In this document: positions 13,422-31,313 of the stretch, piece by piece | Position numbering within the stretch: the first letter of the stretch is position 1 | Layout of the letters: each line of letters begins with the position of its first letter | From: Promethearchaeota archaeon | Lineage (GTDB): Archaea; Asgardarchaeota; Lokiarchaeia; Sigyniarchaeales; SOKP01 | Assembly: GCA_048941265.1 (NCBI GenBank) | Contig: JBHLNT010000034.1 | Span: 1 to 31,315, forward strand | Reading direction: 5' to 3' | Length of the DNA: 31,315 nt | The notes under the pieces: model-generated | What the model was told of the DNA's origin: nothing | The model's database searches: none | What the model saw: the letters and a program-made list of their open reading frames with translations, nothing else | Made by a program: the position numbers and the translations under genes

Positions 13422-14357
13422 ATGGATCAATTATTAAAAGATGCGAAAAGAATAAAATCCTTAGAGATTCAGGGTGCAACTAATGTTGCTCTGAGTGCGA
13501 TTGATTTTTTAAGCAGCTATGCAAAAAGATTGAAATATCGTGAAATAGACACTTGTTTGGATGACTTATATAAGGCAAGAGAGATTTTAATTAATACCAG
13601 GTCAACAGAACCGGCAATGAGGAATGGGTTAAATTATATTATGAATAAATTAGAAAATGAAAAAAATAAATGTAGTTTAGAAGAAGTTCCTGAAAAAATT
13701 GAAATTTATAAAAATGAATACTATCAAATGCTTTTAAATTCCAAGAAAAAGATTGCTGAAATCGGTGCTCGTCGAATTCCGGAGGCGGACAAAACTTTTG
13801 TAGTCATGACACATTGCCATTCTTCATTAGTCACTGCAATTCTTTTGGAAGCTAAAAAGCAAGGTAAGAAATTTAAAGTGATAAACACTGAGACTCAACC
13901 GCGGTTGCAGGGGAGAAAAACGGTATTAGAATTGTTAGGAGCCTCTATAGAAGTAGTTCATGTAATTGACAGTGCAATGAGATGGGCTATTAAGCATTTT
14001 CAAGTAGACTTGATATTAATAGGGGCTGACTCAATCACTTCAGAAGGAACCGTTTTGAATAAAATTGGATCGAGATTACTTGCTCTGGTCGCTCATGAGG
14101 AGAATATTCCGTTTTATGTAGCATCACCTTTATTGAAGTATAATCCTGAAACGAATTTAGGAACTTTAGAAAAAATTGAAATGCGTGATGCTAAAGAAAT
14201 ATGGGAAAATCCTCCAGAAGGGGTCGAAATACTAAATCCCGCTTTTGAAACTATCAGGAGAAGATATATAGACGGATTAATAACCGAAGCAGGGATTTTT
14301 GCCTCGAGTCATGTTCCAAATTATTTCGCAAAATTATATCCAGAAATGGTTGAATAA
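13422..14357 (+). CDS. Ribose-1,5-bisphosphate isomerase (eIF2B-like family)
   Basis: EIQGA, RSTEPAM, THCHS (catalytic Cys), ETQP, GADSI (catalytic Asp), NKIG and NPAFE. Close to form III RuBisCO. Confidence 0.88.
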   Translation: MDQLLKDAKRIKSLEIQGATNVALSAIDFLSSYAKRLKYREIDTCLDDLYKAREILINTRSTEPAMRNGLNYIMNKLENEKNKCSLEEVPEKIEIYKNEYYQMLLNSKKKIAEIGARRIPEADKTFVVMTHCHSSLVTAILLEAKKQGKKFKVINTETQPRLQGRKTVLELLGASIEVVHVIDSAMRWAIKHFQVDLILIGADSITSEGTVLNKIGSRLLALVAHEENIPFYVASPLLKYNPETNLGTLEKIEMRDAKEIWENPPEGVEILNPAFETIRRRYIDGLITEAGIFASSHVPNYFAKLYPEMVE

Positions 14358-14444
14358 GGCCATCTTCTTTTCACATTTCAATTACTCCTATTAATTCAGA
14401 TTTAGAACAAAAAGATTTTTACTTATTATCCCTTAGGATAAAAT

Positions 14445-15662
14445 ATGGATCATTTCGAATCAGCAATGGATTTAAGTTTTAAAACACCGTTATATGCAAA
14501 TCTTTATAAATCACATGGTATCAATAGAAACGATATAAAGAACAGGGAAGATTTACCGAAATTACCTACTGTGTCAAAGACCCACCTAAATGAAGATTTT
14601 ACTAAAGCGATAGCAAAACCCAATGATGTTATAAAGTACCATACGACATCAGGAACTTCAGGAAAGCCTACTGTTGTTGCGTTTACAAAAAACGACTGGG
14701 ATATCTACATATGGCAAAATATTAAATGCCTAAAATTAATTGGAGCAACTAAGCATGATACTTTTTACAATTCCACACCATATGGAATGTTCTTCGCGGG
14801 ATTGGTTTTGCACGATTCATGCATCAATTTAGGGGGAAAAGTTATACCTGCCGGAGCATTACCAACAGCAGAGGCGCATTTCAGCTTGATCCAAATATTT
14901 AATCCATCAGTTTTCATCGGTGTTCCTCAATTTTTATTAAAGCTTGGTAGAACAATCACAGATAGGGGAAATGATCCTCGGGAGTTATCTCTTAAAAAAG
15001 CCTATTGTTTGGGAGAGCCTTTACCTGATAAAAAGCGCCAATTAATTGAAGATTTATGGGATATAGATCTTTATTGCGGATACGGTTTATCAGAAGTAGG
15101 AGCAGGAGCAGAATGTAGTGAAAAACGGGGATTTCATTGGCCGACGAATGATATCTTAATCGAAGTATTAGATGAGAAAAATGGAAAAGGAGAATTGACA
15201 TATACCACTCTTACGAAAACAGGGACATTAGCTATTCGTTTTAGATCAGGGGATTTGGGTTATATTTTAGACGAACCATGTCCTTGCGGCGAAAAAACAC
15301 CCCTAATCTCTCATATTGAAGAAAGAATTGATGATTTAGTTAAAGTAAAAGGAACTTTAATTAGCCCGTTTGCTGTTGATTCTGCATTATATTCATTCAA
15401 AAACATCAGCAACTACTTGTTCGTAATCGATGATGAAAATGGGATAGATACAGTCAGAATTTATGTAGAGGGGGAAAATATAGACCCTTTAAGCATTAAG
15501 GATTCCATATATTCAATGACATACATTACCCCTAATTCTGTAAGGTATATCGAAAAGGATTCCATCCCTATAATAAGTCGCAAAGGAAAACGATTTGTAG
15601 ATTTAAGAAAGGAAAATCCTTACAATAATACAATTCGAAATTTTGAGAGAAGAATTGTTTAA
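14445..15662 (+). CDS. Phenylacetate-CoA ligase (PaaK)-family adenylate-forming enzyme
   Basis: P-loop TTSGTSGKP, YGLSE, RFRSGD, CPCG and RIDDLVKVKG. Confidence 0.88.
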   Translation: MDHFESAMDLSFKTPLYANLYKSHGINRNDIKNREDLPKLPTVSKTHLNEDFTKAIAKPNDVIKYHTTSGTSGKPTVVAFTKNDWDIYIWQNIKCLKLIGATKHDTFYNSTPYGMFFAGLVLHDSCINLGGKVIPAGALPTAEAHFSLIQIFNPSVFIGVPQFLLKLGRTITDRGNDPRELSLKKAYCLGEPLPDKKRQLIEDLWDIDLYCGYGLSEVGAGAECSEKRGFHWPTNDILIEVLDEKNGKGELTYTTLTKTGTLAIRFRSGDLGYILDEPCPCGEKTPLISHIEERIDDLVKVKGTLISPFAVDSALYSFKNISNYLFVIDDENGIDTVRIYVEGENIDPLSIKDSIYSMTYITPNSVRYIEKDSIPIISRKGKRFVDLRKENPYNNTIRNFERRIV

Positions 15663-16936
15663 CCCCATTTTTCAATTGCTTTTCTTAATTCGATGTTGGA
15701 ACTTGCCTTATCTATTAAAGTTGAACCTTCTAAAATAGCATCAACAGCTTGTCTGATGGCTTTAGCTCCTGCTAATGTACCATTAGGATGCCCATGACAA
15801 CCCCCTCCAAATTGATAAACCATTTCTATTCCTAAAAATTTGATTAAATCAGGTATATGAAGTGGACTCAATCCACCTGAGGCAACAGGTAATATAGGTT
15901 TAATTTTACCCCAATCTTGATCAAGTAAAGTTTTGTTATTTCCTTGAATTTTATTTTTGGTAATAACTTTATTTGTTTCAAGCACTTCTTGTTTTCCACC
16001 TTCCATTTTACCTATAATAGTTCCAGTATGAAGTTGATCCATACCTAATAATCTCATAATCTTCGCTAAAGCGAGCATGGTCATTCCATGCTTCTTTTTT
16101 CGAGTTATTGCGGCGTGCATGGCTCGATGAGCGTGAATAACGACATTTTTATCGTCAAGATAGTCCCTAATTTCTTGTAAAGCAGAAAATCCAACAGTTA
16201 AAATATCTAGCATAATATACTCACCTCCATGCTCAATTACAAAATCAGCTCTTTTTTTCATAGTACTAACAGGAGCAGTTATATTTGGCATATATATTTT
16301 TTTTTCCCCGGTTTCTTTTTCTACTTTATCTCTAACTTTTAGTGTTTCTTCAATTCTCTTTTCAAATTTATTAAATACCATGCTAGTAAGGTTTTCATCA
16401 TCTTTAACCATATCTAACCCTCCTCTCCACGCCTCTCCACACACATTAGCGTGTTCAATCTCGTTCAATCCGACTTTAGGCTTGACTATTGTTCCTAAGA
16501 GAGGTCGTTTTTTAATCTTAGTAAGCTTTCTAATTCCTTCAATTCCAAATTTAGGACCGAGATAAGCGTTAATAATATCACGAGGAAAAGTAATATCAAT
16601 TAATCTTAAATTTTTAAGAGCTTTCATCCCATAAATGTTTCCTGCAATAGCACTTAAAATTTGAGACATATTTTCTGCTTCAAAAAGTTCTTGAGTATAA
16701 GCAATTTTTACAATATGATTATCCTCATCTATATAATAGACAGAAGGTCTTAACCTTTCTGCAATTTCTTTTGACATAGTTATTATATCCGTCCAAGTCC
16801 CTATAGAGCTTTCTTTAGCAATTTCTTCACAAGCTTGTTCAAGACTAGGACAAGTTTCAGGAGATCTCTCAACATAATACATTGCAATGAGGTCTTTATC
16901 ATCCGGCTTATAATTTTTATCTACATAATGTAACAT
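15659..16936 (-). CDS. rbcL: Form III RuBisCO large subunit
   Basis: ESSIGTW, GTIVKPKVG, carbamylation motif KDDE, HAHRAMH, loop 6 GKMEG, SGG and QFGGG. The full catalytic set marks a true RuBisCO rather than an RLP. Confidence 0.96.
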   Translation of the reverse strand: MLHYVDKNYKPDDKDLIAMYYVERSPETCPSLEQACEEIAKESSIGTWTDIITMSKEIAERLRPSVYYIDEDNHIVKIAYTQELFEAENMSQILSAIAGNIYGMKALKNLRLIDITFPRDIINAYLGPKFGIEGIRKLTKIKKRPLLGTIVKPKVGLNEIEHANVCGEAWRGGLDMVKDDENLTSMVFNKFEKRIEETLKVRDKVEKETGEKKIYMPNITAPVSTMKKRADFVIEHGGEYIMLDILTVGFSALQEIRDYLDDKNVVIHAHRAMHAAITRKKKHGMTMLALAKIMRLLGMDQLHTGTIIGKMEGGKQEVLETNKVITKNKIQGNNKTLLDQDWGKIKPILPVASGGLSPLHIPDLIKFLGIEMVYQFGGGCHGHPNGTLAGAKAIRQAVDAILEGSTLIDKASSNIELRKAIEKWG

Positions 16937-23012: not shown

Positions 23013-24566
23013 TTAATTATGATTAGTGTTTATACCATAGCCAATTAATCTGTATCTTCTATTAATGATTCTGGATATAGCAAAAATAAAGTCTTCTGCA
23101 GGGCAGATTGGGGGATTTAATTTAATAACAACACTATCTTTTAATAATTTAGTAACAATTCCTCCAGTTTTTTCAGTTCCTACGACAAGTAATAATTTTT
23201 CATTATGTTTAAGAGCATGGACTTTAATCATATTTTCAGAACCTATCACCCTATCGAGTAGATAAACTTTTAATTCTATTTCGGAAAGGATTTCTGGCAA
23301 ATTTCCTGGTTTTCCAACTAAATGCCCAATTAGCGAATCTCCCTTGGTAAGAGCAGGGTCTAATTTTGTCCCAAGTCCGATAAGTCCACCAGGTTTAGCA
23401 TCTTCTAGAAGATTATTACCTTGACTAATACTTACAACAGTCGTTTTTATAGGAATATATTCATCCTTTATATGGAGTCCCGGTCGAATTTCAATTTGAT
23501 CACCAACTTTAATTTTTCCTTTTAAAACGGAGCCACCAATTACACCACCTTTAAGATCTTCTATCTCTTTTCCTGGTCTGTTAATATCAAAAGAACGTGC
23601 GATTAAAAATTGGAATTCTTCTTCTTCACTCAATTCTGGAGATGGTATTATCTTTTCAAAAGCCTCAACCACAGCATCTATATTTGAACCAAACACAGCG
23701 GATGTGGGGATAATAGGGGCATTTTCAGCTACGGTTCCTTTTATAAATTTTTTAATTTGATTATAATTCTCTAAAACTTGTTCTTTTGAAACAGCATCAA
23801 TTTTATTTTGTATGATAATAATGTTATTTATTCCAGCAATATTTAACGCTGCTAAATGCTCTCTAGTTTGAGGTTGTGGACAATCTTCATCAGCAGCAAT
23901 CAATAGACAAGCCCCATCCATAAGTGAAGCACCACTTAACATGGTTGCCATTAATATTTCATGCCCAGGAGCATCAACAAAAGAGATGTTTCGTCTAAAT
24001 TCCAATTGTCCCTTACAATTAGGACAAGAAAATCTTGTTTCTCCCTTTTTTCTTTCTTTTTCGGCCATGTATGCAGTTAAATAATAATCACATACCGAAC
24101 AATAAAAGATAGTAGCATTTGAATAACCTAATTTTATAGAGATACCCCGTTCTTGTTCTTCAGAGTGCCTGTCTGTCCAATCTCCAGTCAATGATTGAAC
24201 TAGCGTGGTTTTACCATGATCTACATGTCCTACTAAACCAATATTGCATTCCGCTTGTTTTTTTATAAGATCCTTAGTGCTTTTTTCTTTTTCCTTAGCT
24301 TTTTGCATGGGAGGGGCTTTAGCTTTTGGAGAGATTTCTGTTTCGGGAGGATTTATTTCCTCTTGATCTCCACTATCTTTGATTATTTCTTTCGCATTTT
24401 CTATATATTTAATGGCTGTGGCTTTGCCTACCCCCTTAATCTTTAATTTAACTAAATCTTCTGGTGTTACTGAAGCTAGTTTTTGAATTGAATCAATACC
24501 AGCTGCTTTCATTTTTTCAGCTGTAGTTTTGCCAATTCCGCTTACTTCTTCTAATTTATAATCCAT
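23013..24566 (-). CDS. eif2g: Translation initiation factor aIF2 gamma subunit with N-terminal helix-hairpin-helix extension
   Basis: GHVDHGKT, RGISIKLGY, Zn knuckle CSVC/CPNC, DAPGHE, NKID, RSFDINRPG and RLIGYG. The first ~62 aa are a tandem HhH (GIGKTTA, GVGKATA). Confidence 0.96.
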   Translation of the reverse strand: MDYKLEEVSGIGKTTAEKMKAAGIDSIQKLASVTPEDLVKLKIKGVGKATAIKYIENAKEIIKDSGDQEEINPPETEISPKAKAPPMQKAKEKEKSTKDLIKKQAECNIGLVGHVDHGKTTLVQSLTGDWTDRHSEEQERGISIKLGYSNATIFYCSVCDYYLTAYMAEKERKKGETRFSCPNCKGQLEFRRNISFVDAPGHEILMATMLSGASLMDGACLLIAADEDCPQPQTREHLAALNIAGINNIIIIQNKIDAVSKEQVLENYNQIKKFIKGTVAENAPIIPTSAVFGSNIDAVVEAFEKIIPSPELSEEEEFQFLIARSFDINRPGKEIEDLKGGVIGGSVLKGKIKVGDQIEIRPGLHIKDEYIPIKTTVVSISQGNNLLEDAKPGGLIGLGTKLDPALTKGDSLIGHLVGKPGNLPEILSEIELKVYLLDRVIGSENMIKVHALKHNEKLLLVVGTEKTGGIVTKLLKDSVVIKLNPPICPAEDFIFAISRIINRRYRLIGYGINTNHN

Positions 24567-27233: not shown

Positions 27234-27794
27234 TTAGACTTTATTTTCTAATTTTGATTCTTGCTTTTTTAAATAAATAAGATATTGAATAGATCTGTAT
27301 GTAGAAAGACCTCCTTGGCAAATTAATGCTAAACATATAAAAAGTACAGCAATTAAATCATTAAATATAAATAAAAAGATAAGAATGAGAATCCCGGAGA
27401 GAGTAAACGTAAAAATAGATGAAATTTCCCCTAAAATAATTTTCCAAGTCTTTGATTGTTTTATATGGATTTTCAATTCTTCTTGATATTTATCCTCGCC
27501 TACTTGTTTTACATACCAACTACCCTCTATATTGTTAGCAAATAAAAAGAGACTCCAAAAAAAAATAAAAAAAGCAAAATAAAGGTCTATACAACCAAGA
27601 ATTATCAGTGGAATTTGTATAAGGACAATTCCCCTCCAACCAAGCTTCCTGGCAAATTTATTAGTTTCCAATTTTAATTCTTTAGTAACATACCTCGTTG
27701 AGAGAATATCAAGAGTTCTGCCAAGTAAAACGATAAGAGCATTCATAAGATATTGGTACCATTCAGTGGAGCGATATATTAGTTGGAATATCAT
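27234..27794 (-). CDS. Hypothetical multi-pass membrane protein
   Basis: About 5 hydrophobic segments and a DILST...ETN motif. Confidence 0.75.
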   Translation of the reverse strand: MIFQLIYRSTEWYQYLMNALIVLLGRTLDILSTRYVTKELKLETNKFARKLGWRGIVLIQIPLIILGCIDLYFAFFIFFWSLFLFANNIEGSWYVKQVGEDKYQEELKIHIKQSKTWKIILGEISSIFTFTLSGILILIFLFIFNDLIAVLFICLALICQGGLSTYRSIQYLIYLKKQESKLENKV

Positions 27795-27887: not shown

Positions 27888-28065
27888 ATTTTCAGTTGTT
27901 AAGCAAATCGCTTAGCGTCCGGAAGTTAAACTTTTTTACGTTGTCAATAGTACTGTAGTTGCAATCTATGGGAACTGACAAACTGTTGCTTCGGCTACGG
28001 TCATGGTAATAGAGGATAATACCCGGTCCCATCCGAACCCGGAAAACGCATAAACAACTGAAAAT
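27888..28065 (+). other. Precursor processing stem around the permuted 5S gene: 13-bp perfect inverted repeat plus BHB-like motif
   Basis: ATTTTCAGTTGTT (27888-27900) is the exact reverse complement of AACAACTGAAAAT (28053-28065). Inside it: GCGT/ACGC, an AAA bulge, a CCGG/CCGG 4-bp helix and an AA(G) bulge. Confidence 0.85.
27925..28044 (+). rRNA. rrf: 5S rRNA gene, circularly permuted (3' half 27925-27989, UUCG linker 27990-27993, 5' half 27994-28044)
   Basis: The 5' half holds CCCATCCGAACCCGGAA (loop C with the conserved CCGAAC). The 3' half holds GTTAAAC, loop E AGTA/GAA and the helices TTGTCA/TGACAA and CTGTAG/CTATGG. All five 5S helices form once 28044 is joined to 27925. Length 120 nt. 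Confidence 0.92.
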
Positions 28066-28085: not shown

Positions 28086-28095
28086 TTTTTTTTTT
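28086..28095 (+). terminator. Oligo-T terminator candidate of the 5S precursor
   Basis: T10 run 20 nt after the 3' arm of the processing stem. Confidence 0.55.
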
Positions 28096-28218: not shown

Positions 28219-28827
28219 ATGCCTAACAAAATTGTAATTTTTTTAAAAAGAATTATAAAATTATGGTTTATCATTCTGATTCTAGCTATACTTATAATAT
28301 ATCTTTATTATCCAACCCCTGCAATATGGATAACTGTGATTAGCATAATTATAATAGCTTTGTCATTTATCCCGGGTCTTTATTTAAAGCTTAGATTAAT
28401 TAAGTTCATGAAGGAATATTATAGAATTGATGATAAAACAATTGCGAAATATTTTGGGAAACCTTTGAGAAAAATTCAAAATAAAATGTTTGTTTTGTCT
28501 CAAAAGCAGGAGGGAAACAGTTGGTTGTACAGACTTTTAAGAAGGATATATGAACCATCTTTAAAGCTAGGAAAGAAGAAATGGCTAATCATTTTCTACA
28601 ATAAACAATATATCTTTTACCACATGGAAACTATTGAAAAAATAAAATCGCTCTATGAAAAGGGTTATAGCGATAAAGAAATGCTTGAAGATCTTAAAGA
28701 ATTTGAAATTAAAAGTAGGGATGAAATTAAAGCAATTATTGAAACATTAATAAAATATAAAACACTTAGCGAGAGGGAAATTTCTGTCAAAGAACGCCGA
28801 GAAAAAAAGCGGTTTGAAAATTTATAA
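28219..28827 (+). CDS. Hypothetical membrane protein
   Basis: Two N-terminal TM helices followed by a basic soluble domain. Confidence 0.75.
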   Translation: MPNKIVIFLKRIIKLWFIILILAILIIYLYYPTPAIWITVISIIIIALSFIPGLYLKLRLIKFMKEYYRIDDKTIAKYFGKPLRKIQNKMFVLSQKQEGNSWLYRLLRRIYEPSLKLGKKKWLIIFYNKQYIFYHMETIEKIKSLYEKGYSDKEMLEDLKEFEIKSRDEIKAIIETLIKYKTLSEREISVKERREKKRFENL

Positions 28828-29482: not shown

Positions 29483-30004
29483 ATGACAAAAAAGTTTATA
29501 CTGAAAATCCTTACTGCAGGAGAAGGTGGCGTCGGTAAAACAACACTTCTTCATCGATACGTTGAGGGCAAGTTCAGCGCAGACACAAAAATGACAATAG
29601 GTGTGGAATTCTTTTTAAAAGAGATAGATCTTGACGGAAAACAATGTACACTTCAACTTTGGGATTTTGGTGGACAAGAAAGATTTAGATTCTTATTAGA
29701 GAGTTATGTTCTAGGAGCAAAAGGAGCCCTATTAATGTTTGATTTAACCCGGCCAATGACATTGGAAAATTTGCAGCAATGGGTATCTATCTGTCGTAAA
29801 GGAGACTCAAAGCTTCCTATTTTATTCTTAGGGACAAAATTAGATTTAGTAAATGACATAATGGTTGATGATGATTATGCCTTATCTTTCAAACAACAGT
29901 TTGAATTATTTGATTATATGAAAATATCCTCTAAATCTGGGGAAAATGTTGCAGAAGCGTTTGAATTATTAACAAAAAAGATTTTAGAGCGACAAACCTA
30001 TTGA
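29483..30004 (+). CDS. Rab/Ras-like small GTPase
   Basis: G1 GEGGVGKT, G2 TIGVEF, G3 WDFGGQERF, G4 GTKLD and G5 SSK. No C-terminal Cys prenylation motif. Confidence 0.95.
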   Translation: MTKKFILKILTAGEGGVGKTTLLHRYVEGKFSADTKMTIGVEFFLKEIDLDGKQCTLQLWDFGGQERFRFLLESYVLGAKGALLMFDLTRPMTLENLQQWVSICRKGDSKLPILFLGTKLDLVNDIMVDDDYALSFKQQFELFDYMKISSKSGENVAEAFELLTKKILERQTY

Positions 30005-30450
30005 GCTCGCAAAAAAAAAAAGAGGATAATGTTGTAGTATTCGATTCTAATTTTATTTTACTTCCCTTCCAATTCAAGATTGATTATTTAAGTGATATCT
30101 ATTTACATTTAGAAGGAAGAACGCGATTTTATATTTTTAAACAAAGTTTAGACGAAATTGAAGCAAAAATTAGAAGAGAACCTAAAACTAGAAAGCTAAA
30201 GAGACAATATAAGGGAGCTATGGCATATTTAGATAAAAATGAGAGGATTTATCCTATTTATTTTATTGATGAAATTAAGGATGAAAAAGAAACTACAGAT
30301 GATTTTCTATTAAAATGGTGTATAAGGTTTAAGAACGATTATAAAAAAGTCTTTTTAGCAACAAATGATGCTCAATTTCGCAAAAAAGCAAAAAATTCCC
30401 ATCTAAATCTCATATTTCTTCGACAAAAAAAATATTTAGTAATAGAATGA
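30001..30450 (+). CDS. PIN-domain nuclease, archaeal Fcf1/Utp24-like
   Basis: VVFDSNFILLPFQFKID, DEIE, TDD, ATND and IFLRQKKYL, with the acidic tetrad apparently intact. The start overlaps the GTPase stop (TTGA). Confidence 0.85.
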   Translation: MSSQKKKEDNVVVFDSNFILLPFQFKIDYLSDIYLHLEGRTRFYIFKQSLDEIEAKIRREPKTRKLKRQYKGAMAYLDKNERIYPIYFIDEIKDEKETTDDFLLKWCIRFKNDYKKVFLATNDAQFRKKAKNSHLNLIFLRQKKYLVIE

Positions 30451-30794
30451 AGCTAAATCTGTTAGTTTTGGAGATAATTTTGATTAGTAGTGAAGAGCCT
30501 AAGCGAATTTTATATCTTTAAATGATACTCATTTTATGTTAAATGTTAAGATCTGGATTTATAAAAGAAATCATAAACCATAAATAAAAAATTTAAGATT
30601 AATTTTTTAAGATGTATAAAATTTATTTAATAAATTTATCTATTCTCAAAATATATTAAGACTATTAAATTGTTCAAATTAAAGACATAGAAATTGATCT
30701 ATATCAAAATGGGATATTAGCTAAAAATTTTAAAATATTTAACATTAAACAATCAGTTAATTAAATTATCAATATAATAGAGAAGAATATTCTG

Positions 30795-31313
30795 ATGAGT
30801 AAACCTATTGTCTTAAAAGTATTAACAGCCGGGGAAGGCGGGGTTGGAAAAACAACTCTACTTCATAGATATGTCGAGGGAAAATTCTCTTCTGAGACTA
30901 AGATGACAATAGGTGTAGAGTTTTTTTTGAAAGAACTTAATATTGATGGGCAAAAAGTTATGTTGCAGCTTTGGGATTTTGGAGGGCAAGAGAGGTTCAG
31001 ATTTTTGCTAGAAAGTTATGTTATTGGAGCCCGTGGAGCATTACTTATGTTTGATTTGACTAGAACAATGACTTTAGAAAATATTGACCAATGGGTCCAA
31101 ATAGTACGTAAAGAGGATCCTGAATTACCTATCTTGTTTTTGGGATCTAAATCAGACTTGGAAAATGATATTTGCGTAGCAGAAGATTATATTGAGGAGT
31201 TCAAACAACAATTTCAGATGTATGATTTTTTACGTATTTCTTCCAAAACAGGTGAAAATGTGGAACTTAGTTTTGAAAGCTTGACCAGAGAAATTTTAAA
31301 GAAAATTTTATAG
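30795..31313 (+). CDS. Rab/Ras-like small GTPase, paralog 2
   Basis: Same G1-G3 motifs, G4 GSKSD. About 70% identical to 29483..30004 by manual alignment. Stop TAG at 31311-31313. Confidence 0.95.
   Translation: MSKPIVLKVLTAGEGGVGKTTLLHRYVEGKFSSETKMTIGVEFFLKELNIDGQKVMLQLWDFGGQERFRFLLESYVIGARGALLMFDLTRTMTLENIDQWVQIVRKEDPELPILFLGSKSDLENDICVAEDYIEEFKQQFQMYDFLRISSKTGENVELSFESLTREILKKIL

Follow-up and report, generated by a model that had tools for sequence, protein, structure and literature searches.

A circularly permuted 5S rRNA gene in Asgard archaea, predicted to be restored as a closed circle by the tRNA splicing machinery

Where does this Loki-type Asgard archaeon encode its 5S rRNA? Within the 31,315-nt stretch of DNA that we analyzed (the window), neither ARAGORN nor Rfam at its gathering score returned any hit, and at the locus considered here the Rfam 5S family (RF00001, model positions 26-52) matched 28020-45 only, covering loop C and helix III with 22.1 bits against a gathering score of 38. 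The initial annotation had proposed that a 5S rRNA is excised at this locus as an intron-like circle by the tRNA splicing machinery through a bulge-helix-bulge (BHB)-like motif, and had named conservation of the motif in homologues and the type of splicing endonuclease (EndA) in the genome as checks.

The locus holds the two halves of a 5S rRNA in swapped order (Table 1), a genomic order in which the gathering score of RF00001 is not reached. When compared with a profile of 19 non-permuted Asgard 5S genes, the linear DNA scored 19.2 bits and the circle formed from 27925-28044 scored 34.7 bits, the highest among 625 choices of junction (median 22.6 bits). Profile positions 5-84 align across the junction of this 120-nt circle, and the conserved blocks are complete once the order is restored. 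The rotated sequence folds as a three-armed 5S, with the UUCG loop at 27990-93 bridging the old 3' and 5' ends, and covariation was seen for helices I, II, IV and V in one alignment of homologues (A1) and for helices I, III and IV in another (A2). Both 5S halves were likewise matched in swapped order in homologues.

Table 1. Features of the permuted 5S locus, in window positions
Feature	Position	Strand	Basis or remark
Outer processing stem, 5' arm	27888..27900	+	13 perfect pairs with 28053-28065
Leader side hairpin	27901..27913	+	pair probabilities 0.89-0.98
Flank-side helix of splice motif, 5' strand (GCGT)	27915..27918	+	pairs with 28046-49 (ACGC)
Central 4-bp helix, leader strand (CCGG)	27919..27922	+	pairs with 28039-42
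5'-side bulge/loop AAG	27923..27925	+	predicted cut 27924/27925; putative cleavage
Circularly permuted 5S rRNA, predicted circular product	27925..28044	+	120 nt
Canonical 3' half of 5S, encoded first (3' strands of helices III/II, helices V and IV, 3' strand of helix I)	27925..27989	+	circle-to-profile alignment, rotated-sequence fold, consensus structure
UUCG tetraloop capping helix I (27982-89/27994-28001)	27990..27993	+	sequence
Canonical 5' half of 5S, encoded second (helix I 5' strand, helix II 5' strand, helix III, loop C, AA bulge)	27994..28044	+	nhmmer model 5-50 at 27997-28044; Rfam
Central helix, 5S strand (CCGG)	28039..28042	+	in the mature fold pairs with 28023-26 (helix III)
3-nt bulge AAA	28043..28045	+	predicted cut 28044/28045
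Flank-side helix, 3' strand	28046..28049	+	pairs with 27915-18
Outer processing stem, 3' arm	28053..28065	+	13 perfect pairs with 27888-27900
Run of 10 T 3' of the stem; possible archaeal-type terminator	28086..28095	+	sequence

The covariance model R1, whose training set included this sequence, gave a single match in the host genome (118 bits), and no second 5S was found there by Rfam, the nhmmer profile or R1. The permuted gene is the only detectable source of 5S in this genome, which is 91% complete and has a G+C content of 30.5%. The element stands alone between two open reading frames of no known family (27234-27794 on the minus strand and 28219-28827 on the plus strand). No convincing TATA box was found at the locus; a scan with sigma-70 promoter and terminator models, which are unsuited to archaea, gave hits at chance level, and the T run downstream may serve as a terminator.

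The window also encodes an L22e-like protein, a TFIIS-like protein and an eIF2-gamma-like GTPase with an additional N-terminal helix-hairpin-helix domain (23013-24566, minus strand). An IF-2B-family gene, an AMP-binding enzyme and the RuBisCO large chain are grouped at 13422-16936, in what we presume may be an archaeal nucleoside-salvage cluster, and two Ras-family small GTPases lie in near-tandem on either side of a PIN-domain gene (29483-31313). Across the whole host genome ARAGORN made 27 tRNA calls only, several of them with doubtful anticodons or introns; non-canonical introns may interrupt many of the tRNA genes, or these genes may be unassembled.

The helices, bulges and hairpin of the proposed splice motif were each found where the initial annotation had placed them, and the excised segment is indeed 120 nt long. 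Both bulges lie 3' of the central helix, in the geometry of a relaxed (HBh'/BHL) motif. The annotation had allowed for such relaxation, and the inner GTT/AAC pairing forms with a probability of only ~0.02, so that the second "bulge" is better read as an open loop of the HBh' type. With this inner helix unformed the locus departs from the strict hBHBh' form of an EndA substrate, a form that is present in full in some relatives (e.g., L079). Small hairpins resembling the leader side hairpin occur at the same place in many homologues of family f1. In a single-sequence fold at 37 C the leader CCGG pairs with 28023-26 (p = 0.6) in preference to 28039-42 (p = 0.22), and the BHB fold is 1.4 kcal/mol less stable than the minimum free energy structure. 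The 5.01 Mb genome contains 55 perfect inverted repeats of 13 bp whose arms are separated by 120-200 nt, as in the outer stem, about one per 90 kb.

The initial annotation had also argued that the cuts restore the 5S in an exact register that is hard to attribute to chance. This argument does not hold at the locus alone: CCGGAA is a direct repeat as well, and because CCGG is palindromic the flank is both complement and repeat of the 5S strand, so that seven junctions (27919/28038 to 27925/28044) give an identical circle with the same top score. It does hold across homologues.

In an RNAalifold analysis of 22 homologues the GCG/CGC and CCGG/CCGG helices were recovered unprompted. The proposed structure was paired in 95.5% of 154 cells and showed 25 double changes as compared to 5.8 in shuffled alignments (a test that is inflated by kinship), with a covariation score of 0.46 against 0.19 when shuffled; registers slid along the alignment were at most 48% paired. 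The flank-side helix shows changes on both sides at all 3 aligned pairs, and one pair of the central helix is CG in 11 sequences and UA in 11, the flank strand covarying with the 5S strand.

We then asked how often the motif would restore an intact 5S, fixing the canonical circle length and leaving the position of the helix and the size of the bulge (0-6) free. Out of 115 loci 13 duplicates were dropped, 7 nested loci were handled apart, and 6 loci lacked an anchor, all of which were recovered later; the resulting set of 95 includes 8 loci re-anchored, and one (L007) added, after the first failures were seen. The best flank fold had a 3-nt bulge in 94 of the 95 loci, and all four pairs of the central helix were formed in 84. 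EndA cuts after the second base of the bulge, and a cut at exactly this offset restores the 5S in 93 of 95 loci, as compared to 56, 69 and 36 loci for cuts after 0, 1 and 3 bases; in 10 loci it is the sole restoring cut. The two misses yield a T at a variable position of loop C. L009 and the variants L140 and L145 fail the strict tests.

Among 47 distinct motifs the outer four pairs are 96% paired with their own partner and 52% paired with flanks taken from other loci (63% at most over 2000 swaps), and the leader strand is the complement of the 5S strand rather than a repeat of it in 36 of the 47, copying it in 11; since the loci are kin to each other, these and the preceding locus counts overstate independence. 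A blind search by structure only, in which the product was not given, placed the restoring motif at the top in 63 of 96 loci, its scoring thrown off by AT-rich distal stems and by 8 misplaced anchors. For families outside the model the top rank was reached in 5 of 8 loci. Among those eight, L226 has a short outer helix, L228 has no adjacent outer helix, and L230, a permuted 5S of family f26 with an insertion near helix III, has an unparsed splice register.

Comparison of homologues further revealed that the break point of the permuted gene has several positions. At the host locus it falls after the AA bulge of helix III; in others it falls between the two As of this bulge (e.g., L062, L079 and L084, with CGTG/CACG helices), at two places in loop C (L010 and L137-L162; L146) or in loop B (L179). 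The splice motif shifts with the break point each time, and a cut after the second bulge base returns the intact sequence. Genes broken in loop C hold, intact in their DNA, the very junction that is predicted for the host locus. A longer junction motif was matched in 0 of 224 loci, because the loop-C genes differ just upstream, and a metagenome scan for the junction together with the closed linker retrieved 26 stretches, all of them genomic loop-C-broken genes and none a circle.

Insertions that look like short introns accompany the permutation in some of these genes. Out of 18 loop-C insertions of 30-31 nt, 17 would be removed exactly by a cut after the second bulge base, and structure ranks the restoring motif first in 12. 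BHB-type introns of this length sit at a single loop-C position, with a TCCG/CGGG helix, in 17 loci (L005, L007, L015, L017, L021, L097, L106, L107, L115, L122, L127-L129, L132 and L134-L136), 16 of which would be excised exactly under the EndA rule, L134 having been missed by the search pattern; L121 carries a 31-nt intron at another loop-C position, and the body of this intron duplicates a segment of the 5S. Intron-like insertions with BHB-type ends were also observed in loop D (L186, L190 and the unparsed L238), in the 3' strand of helix I (L012-L014 and L021), and in one non-permuted gene of family f9 (L067).

Seven nested loci (L065, L066, L068, L073, L087, L090 and L099) have a hairpin of 30-32 nt at the permutation junction itself. 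Here the second motif is not complete until the first ligation has taken place, and cutting again would yield a circle of 121-123 nt; in the six loci that were scored, the restoring second register ranks 1, 1, 2, 5, 5 and 6. Since the second motif needs the first ligation, the nested loci argue for true ligation. Junction hairpins of a similar kind were seen in L232, L233, L236 and L237. In all these genes the strong helix of the motif lies on the discarded, flank side, like the intron-side helix of the 5S introns of relatives, and the flanks can therefore be regarded as the two parts of a split intron that encloses an exon circle.

The host genome encodes proteins that such a pathway would need. 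It has two EndA paralogues, pointing to a two-subunit enzyme: an alpha subunit of 201 aa, in which the Tyr, His and Lys residues are kept, and a beta subunit of 198 aa, in which Tyr and His are lost. The alpha subunit aligns best to 3p1z_B and 3ajv_B and is gapless over the N-terminal insert region of 3p1z_B, 3ajv_B and 2cv8_A. We take this insert to be the L1 loop. The naming also leans on PMC5829648, whose accessible text describes an (alpha beta)2 EndA with an L1 loop in Asgard archaea and ties this loop to relaxed motifs. RtcB is encoded as well, and so are the 5S-binding proteins uL5 and uL18, the latter detected with PF17144 (PF14204 gave no match in the host genome or in any control).

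To what extent is this gene organization shared among Asgard archaea? A DNA search detected the core in 19 of 40 relatives, all within the 24 genomes of family f1. Across the phylum 49 of 151 genomes passed the Rfam cut-off; 48 of these belong to six families (f2, f9, f12, f14, f18 and f28), and the remaining one was borderline and proved to be permuted (L071). Of 40 loci fetched next, 38, from 16 families, had their halves swapped; the remaining two genes were canonical, one serving as a control and one carrying an insertion. A covariance model built from 41 permuted genes scored at least 50 bits in 89 of the 151 genomes, spanning 20 families (training sequences match by construction; families f6, f16, f26 and f29 were outside the training set). 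Below that score it gave 44 matches, each of them in one of the six canonical families; the other 18 genomes were without a match. In the single-contig genomes G041, G051, G061, G064, G075 and G108 no Rfam 5S was found above the cut-off, and the permuted model scored at least 96 bits.

A separate canonical 5S alongside the permuted gene was found in 0 of the 89 genomes. Within the same order, canonical genes are present in 12 of 14 genomes of the sister family f2. In family f1 a full-length Rfam 5S appeared in 2 of 101 genomes (L165 in G193 and L177 in G213), with sequences unlike Asgard 5S that gave 18.3 bits or no score with the Asgard profile; these are possibly contaminant contigs. Four loci of family f2 (L167, L169, L170 and L171) have tandem canonical 5S copies 360-1260 bases apart, and in L229 (family f16) the trailer is followed directly by a repeat of the 5' portion of the permuted 5S, either a tandem copy or an assembly effect.

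The loop that closes helix I is of largely conserved length and variable sequence. It has 4 nt in 46 of 59 distinct linkers and reads UUCG in 23, while loop sequence and closing pair together make up 22 types. The C(UUCG)G form, an extra-stable tetraloop, is rare, with 2 of the 59. Without introns, the circles are 115-131 nt long, and 47 of 74 are 120-121 nt.

We propose that the locus is a stand-alone 5S gene in circularly permuted order, and that the leader and trailer of its precursor would pair into a long stem ending in a relaxed BHB (HBh') motif. There the leader CCGG would displace the helix III partner and pair with 28039-42; the two-subunit tRNA splicing endonuclease would cut at 27924/25 and 28044/45, after the second base of each bulge; and RtcB would join 28044 to 27925. 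In the resulting 120-nt circle helix III and its AA bulge would be restored and helix I capped by the UUCG loop, and this closed ring would be the 5S RNA used in the ribosome. The comparison of homologues supports the splicing-dependent 5S circle of the initial annotation, through the conserved bulge, the predicted cut, the covariation, the motif that moves with the break point and the enzymes. As judged from these comparisons, transcription, EndA cleavage at the two sites and RtcB ligation are jointly very likely. Given ligation, the ring is likely to be kept closed, as favored by the 4-nt closing loop, by circle lengths that are mostly 120-121 nt and by an E. coli 5S with ends joined through a 4-nt connector, which works inside a 23S-5S hybrid (from the available part of PMC7283268). 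Taken as a whole, up to the closed ring in the ribosome, we consider this explanation probable.

A permuted tRNA circle is re-opened to remove its spacer, and the same EndA/RtcB splicing could here too produce a circle that is an intermediate, with a nuclease opening the helix I loop to leave a linear 5S with near-canonical ends. We regard this as rather unlikely. It would agree with the expression of permuted tRNA genes via a circular intermediate that is then re-cut (cited in the section available of PMC4267664), with archaeal 16S and 23S circles, which are widely believed to be re-linearized (PMC12918454, in its accessible portion), and with the kept loop length, which a nuclease might need. 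However, the 5S linker consists of the tetraloop alone, leaving no spacer to cut out, the circle already has the length of a 5S, and loop sequence and closing pair vary; moreover, closed ends are tolerated in the engineered E. coli ribosomes mentioned above, and, according to the same portion of PMC12918454, circular 23S is kept in some archaeal ribosomes.

Two further explanations dispense with the circle. EndA might trim the precursor and leave the ends unjoined, so that the mature 5S would be a linear permuted RNA nicked at the helix III bulge, as in brown-algal mitochondria. A linear permuted 5S does exist in stramenopile mitochondria (PMC4267664, same section), and the ligation step is one that we infer; but joining the ends would neither add nor remove a base in 93 of 95 loci, and this holds at five break positions; such a fit requires selection on the joined sequence, and nested as well as internal 5S introns would need ligation, the former to create their second motif. 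RtcB is present, too, and we find unjoined ends very unlikely. Still more improbable, in our judgment, is that CCGGAA is a direct repeat left behind by the permuting rearrangement, with the stem processed by other nucleases, or that the locus is a pseudogene or an assembly artefact and the real 5S lies elsewhere. The direct repeat at the host locus and a genome that is 91% complete, with most rRNA sequence missing, would fit this idea, but the leader copies the 5S strand in just 11 of the 47 distinct motifs and own partners pair far better than swapped ones, so that a repeat relic is rejected; the layout recurs in the 89 genomes, closed ones included, with compensatory changes in 5S helices and no separate canonical gene among them.

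Splicing into a closed ring is the reading we carry to the phylum, where on balance we lean towards a 5S that, in most Asgard families, needs the tRNA splicing machinery and works as a ring without free ends. The gene would then be a natural permuted intron-exon unit whose break point moved several times while collecting short introns, some of them removable only after the first ligation. If this is true, tRNA splicing would be essential for building a core rRNA helix, and ring-shaped 5S would reside in the ribosomes of the archaea closest to eukaryotes; if the layout is ancestral in the phylum, the canonical 5S of six families would have been re-derived. Genome quality scoring counts 5S genes, and the finding bears on it. 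A permuted layout would explain the seemingly missing 5S genes of such Asgard genomes, the permuted model finding the gene in 89 of the 151 sampled. The available text of PMC8813620 indeed describes 5S as not predictable in closed Asgard genomes.

What appears to be new here is a permuted layout, predicted to be splice-circularized, for a 5S rRNA; a kindred layout is known for SRP RNA. No description of a permuted archaeal 5S gene was found in the literature searched, which consisted mainly of openly accessible main texts. In its accessible text, a survey of 5S insertions (PMC7812874) contains no occurrence of "permut" and treats insertions mainly as expansion segments, and PMC12918454 states, in the portion available, that the BHB circle route is taken by 16S and 23S "but not 5S rRNAs".

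The closest precedent is the SRP RNA of Thermoproteus tenax (Plagens et al. 2015, PMC4731332, as far as its text was accessible), which also has swapped halves, a BHB formed by leader and trailer and a heterotetrameric EndA. As predicted for the 5S, ligation restores a functional site in a circular product, and the gene was once "missing". The Asgard case differs in concerning a ribosomal RNA, in spanning 20 sampled families rather than two species, and in having at least five break positions and added introns. The circles of archaeal pre-16S and pre-23S rRNA and the permuted 23S of Pyrococcus (available parts of PMC12918454, PMC7758197 and PMC8339473) likewise involve a BHB stem, EndA and ligation, but the pre-16S/23S genes have the usual order, with a junction beyond the conserved core, whereas splicing of the Asgard 5S would build a core helix.

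The mitochondrial 5S of brown algae and other stramenopiles (Valach et al. 2014, PMC4267664, in the section available) resembles the Asgard gene in having helix I closed as a hairpin and the ends moved. There, the ends are located at the three-way junction, and the RNA remains linear and permuted, with no BHB or ligation; in the Asgard genes they lie in helix III, loop C or loop B, with a splice motif. The permuted tRNA genes of Cyanidioschyzon merolae (via the same section) also pass through a circle as the tRNA splicing machinery restores their order, and differ from the Asgard 5S, in which the linker is a bare tetraloop. Finally, circular 5S species have been described in the archaea Halobacterium and Sulfolobus; in the accessible text of PMC12558985 they derive from normal genes, their ends vary, and they are interpreted as decay products, whereas the Asgard gene would need one exact junction to make a 5S at all.
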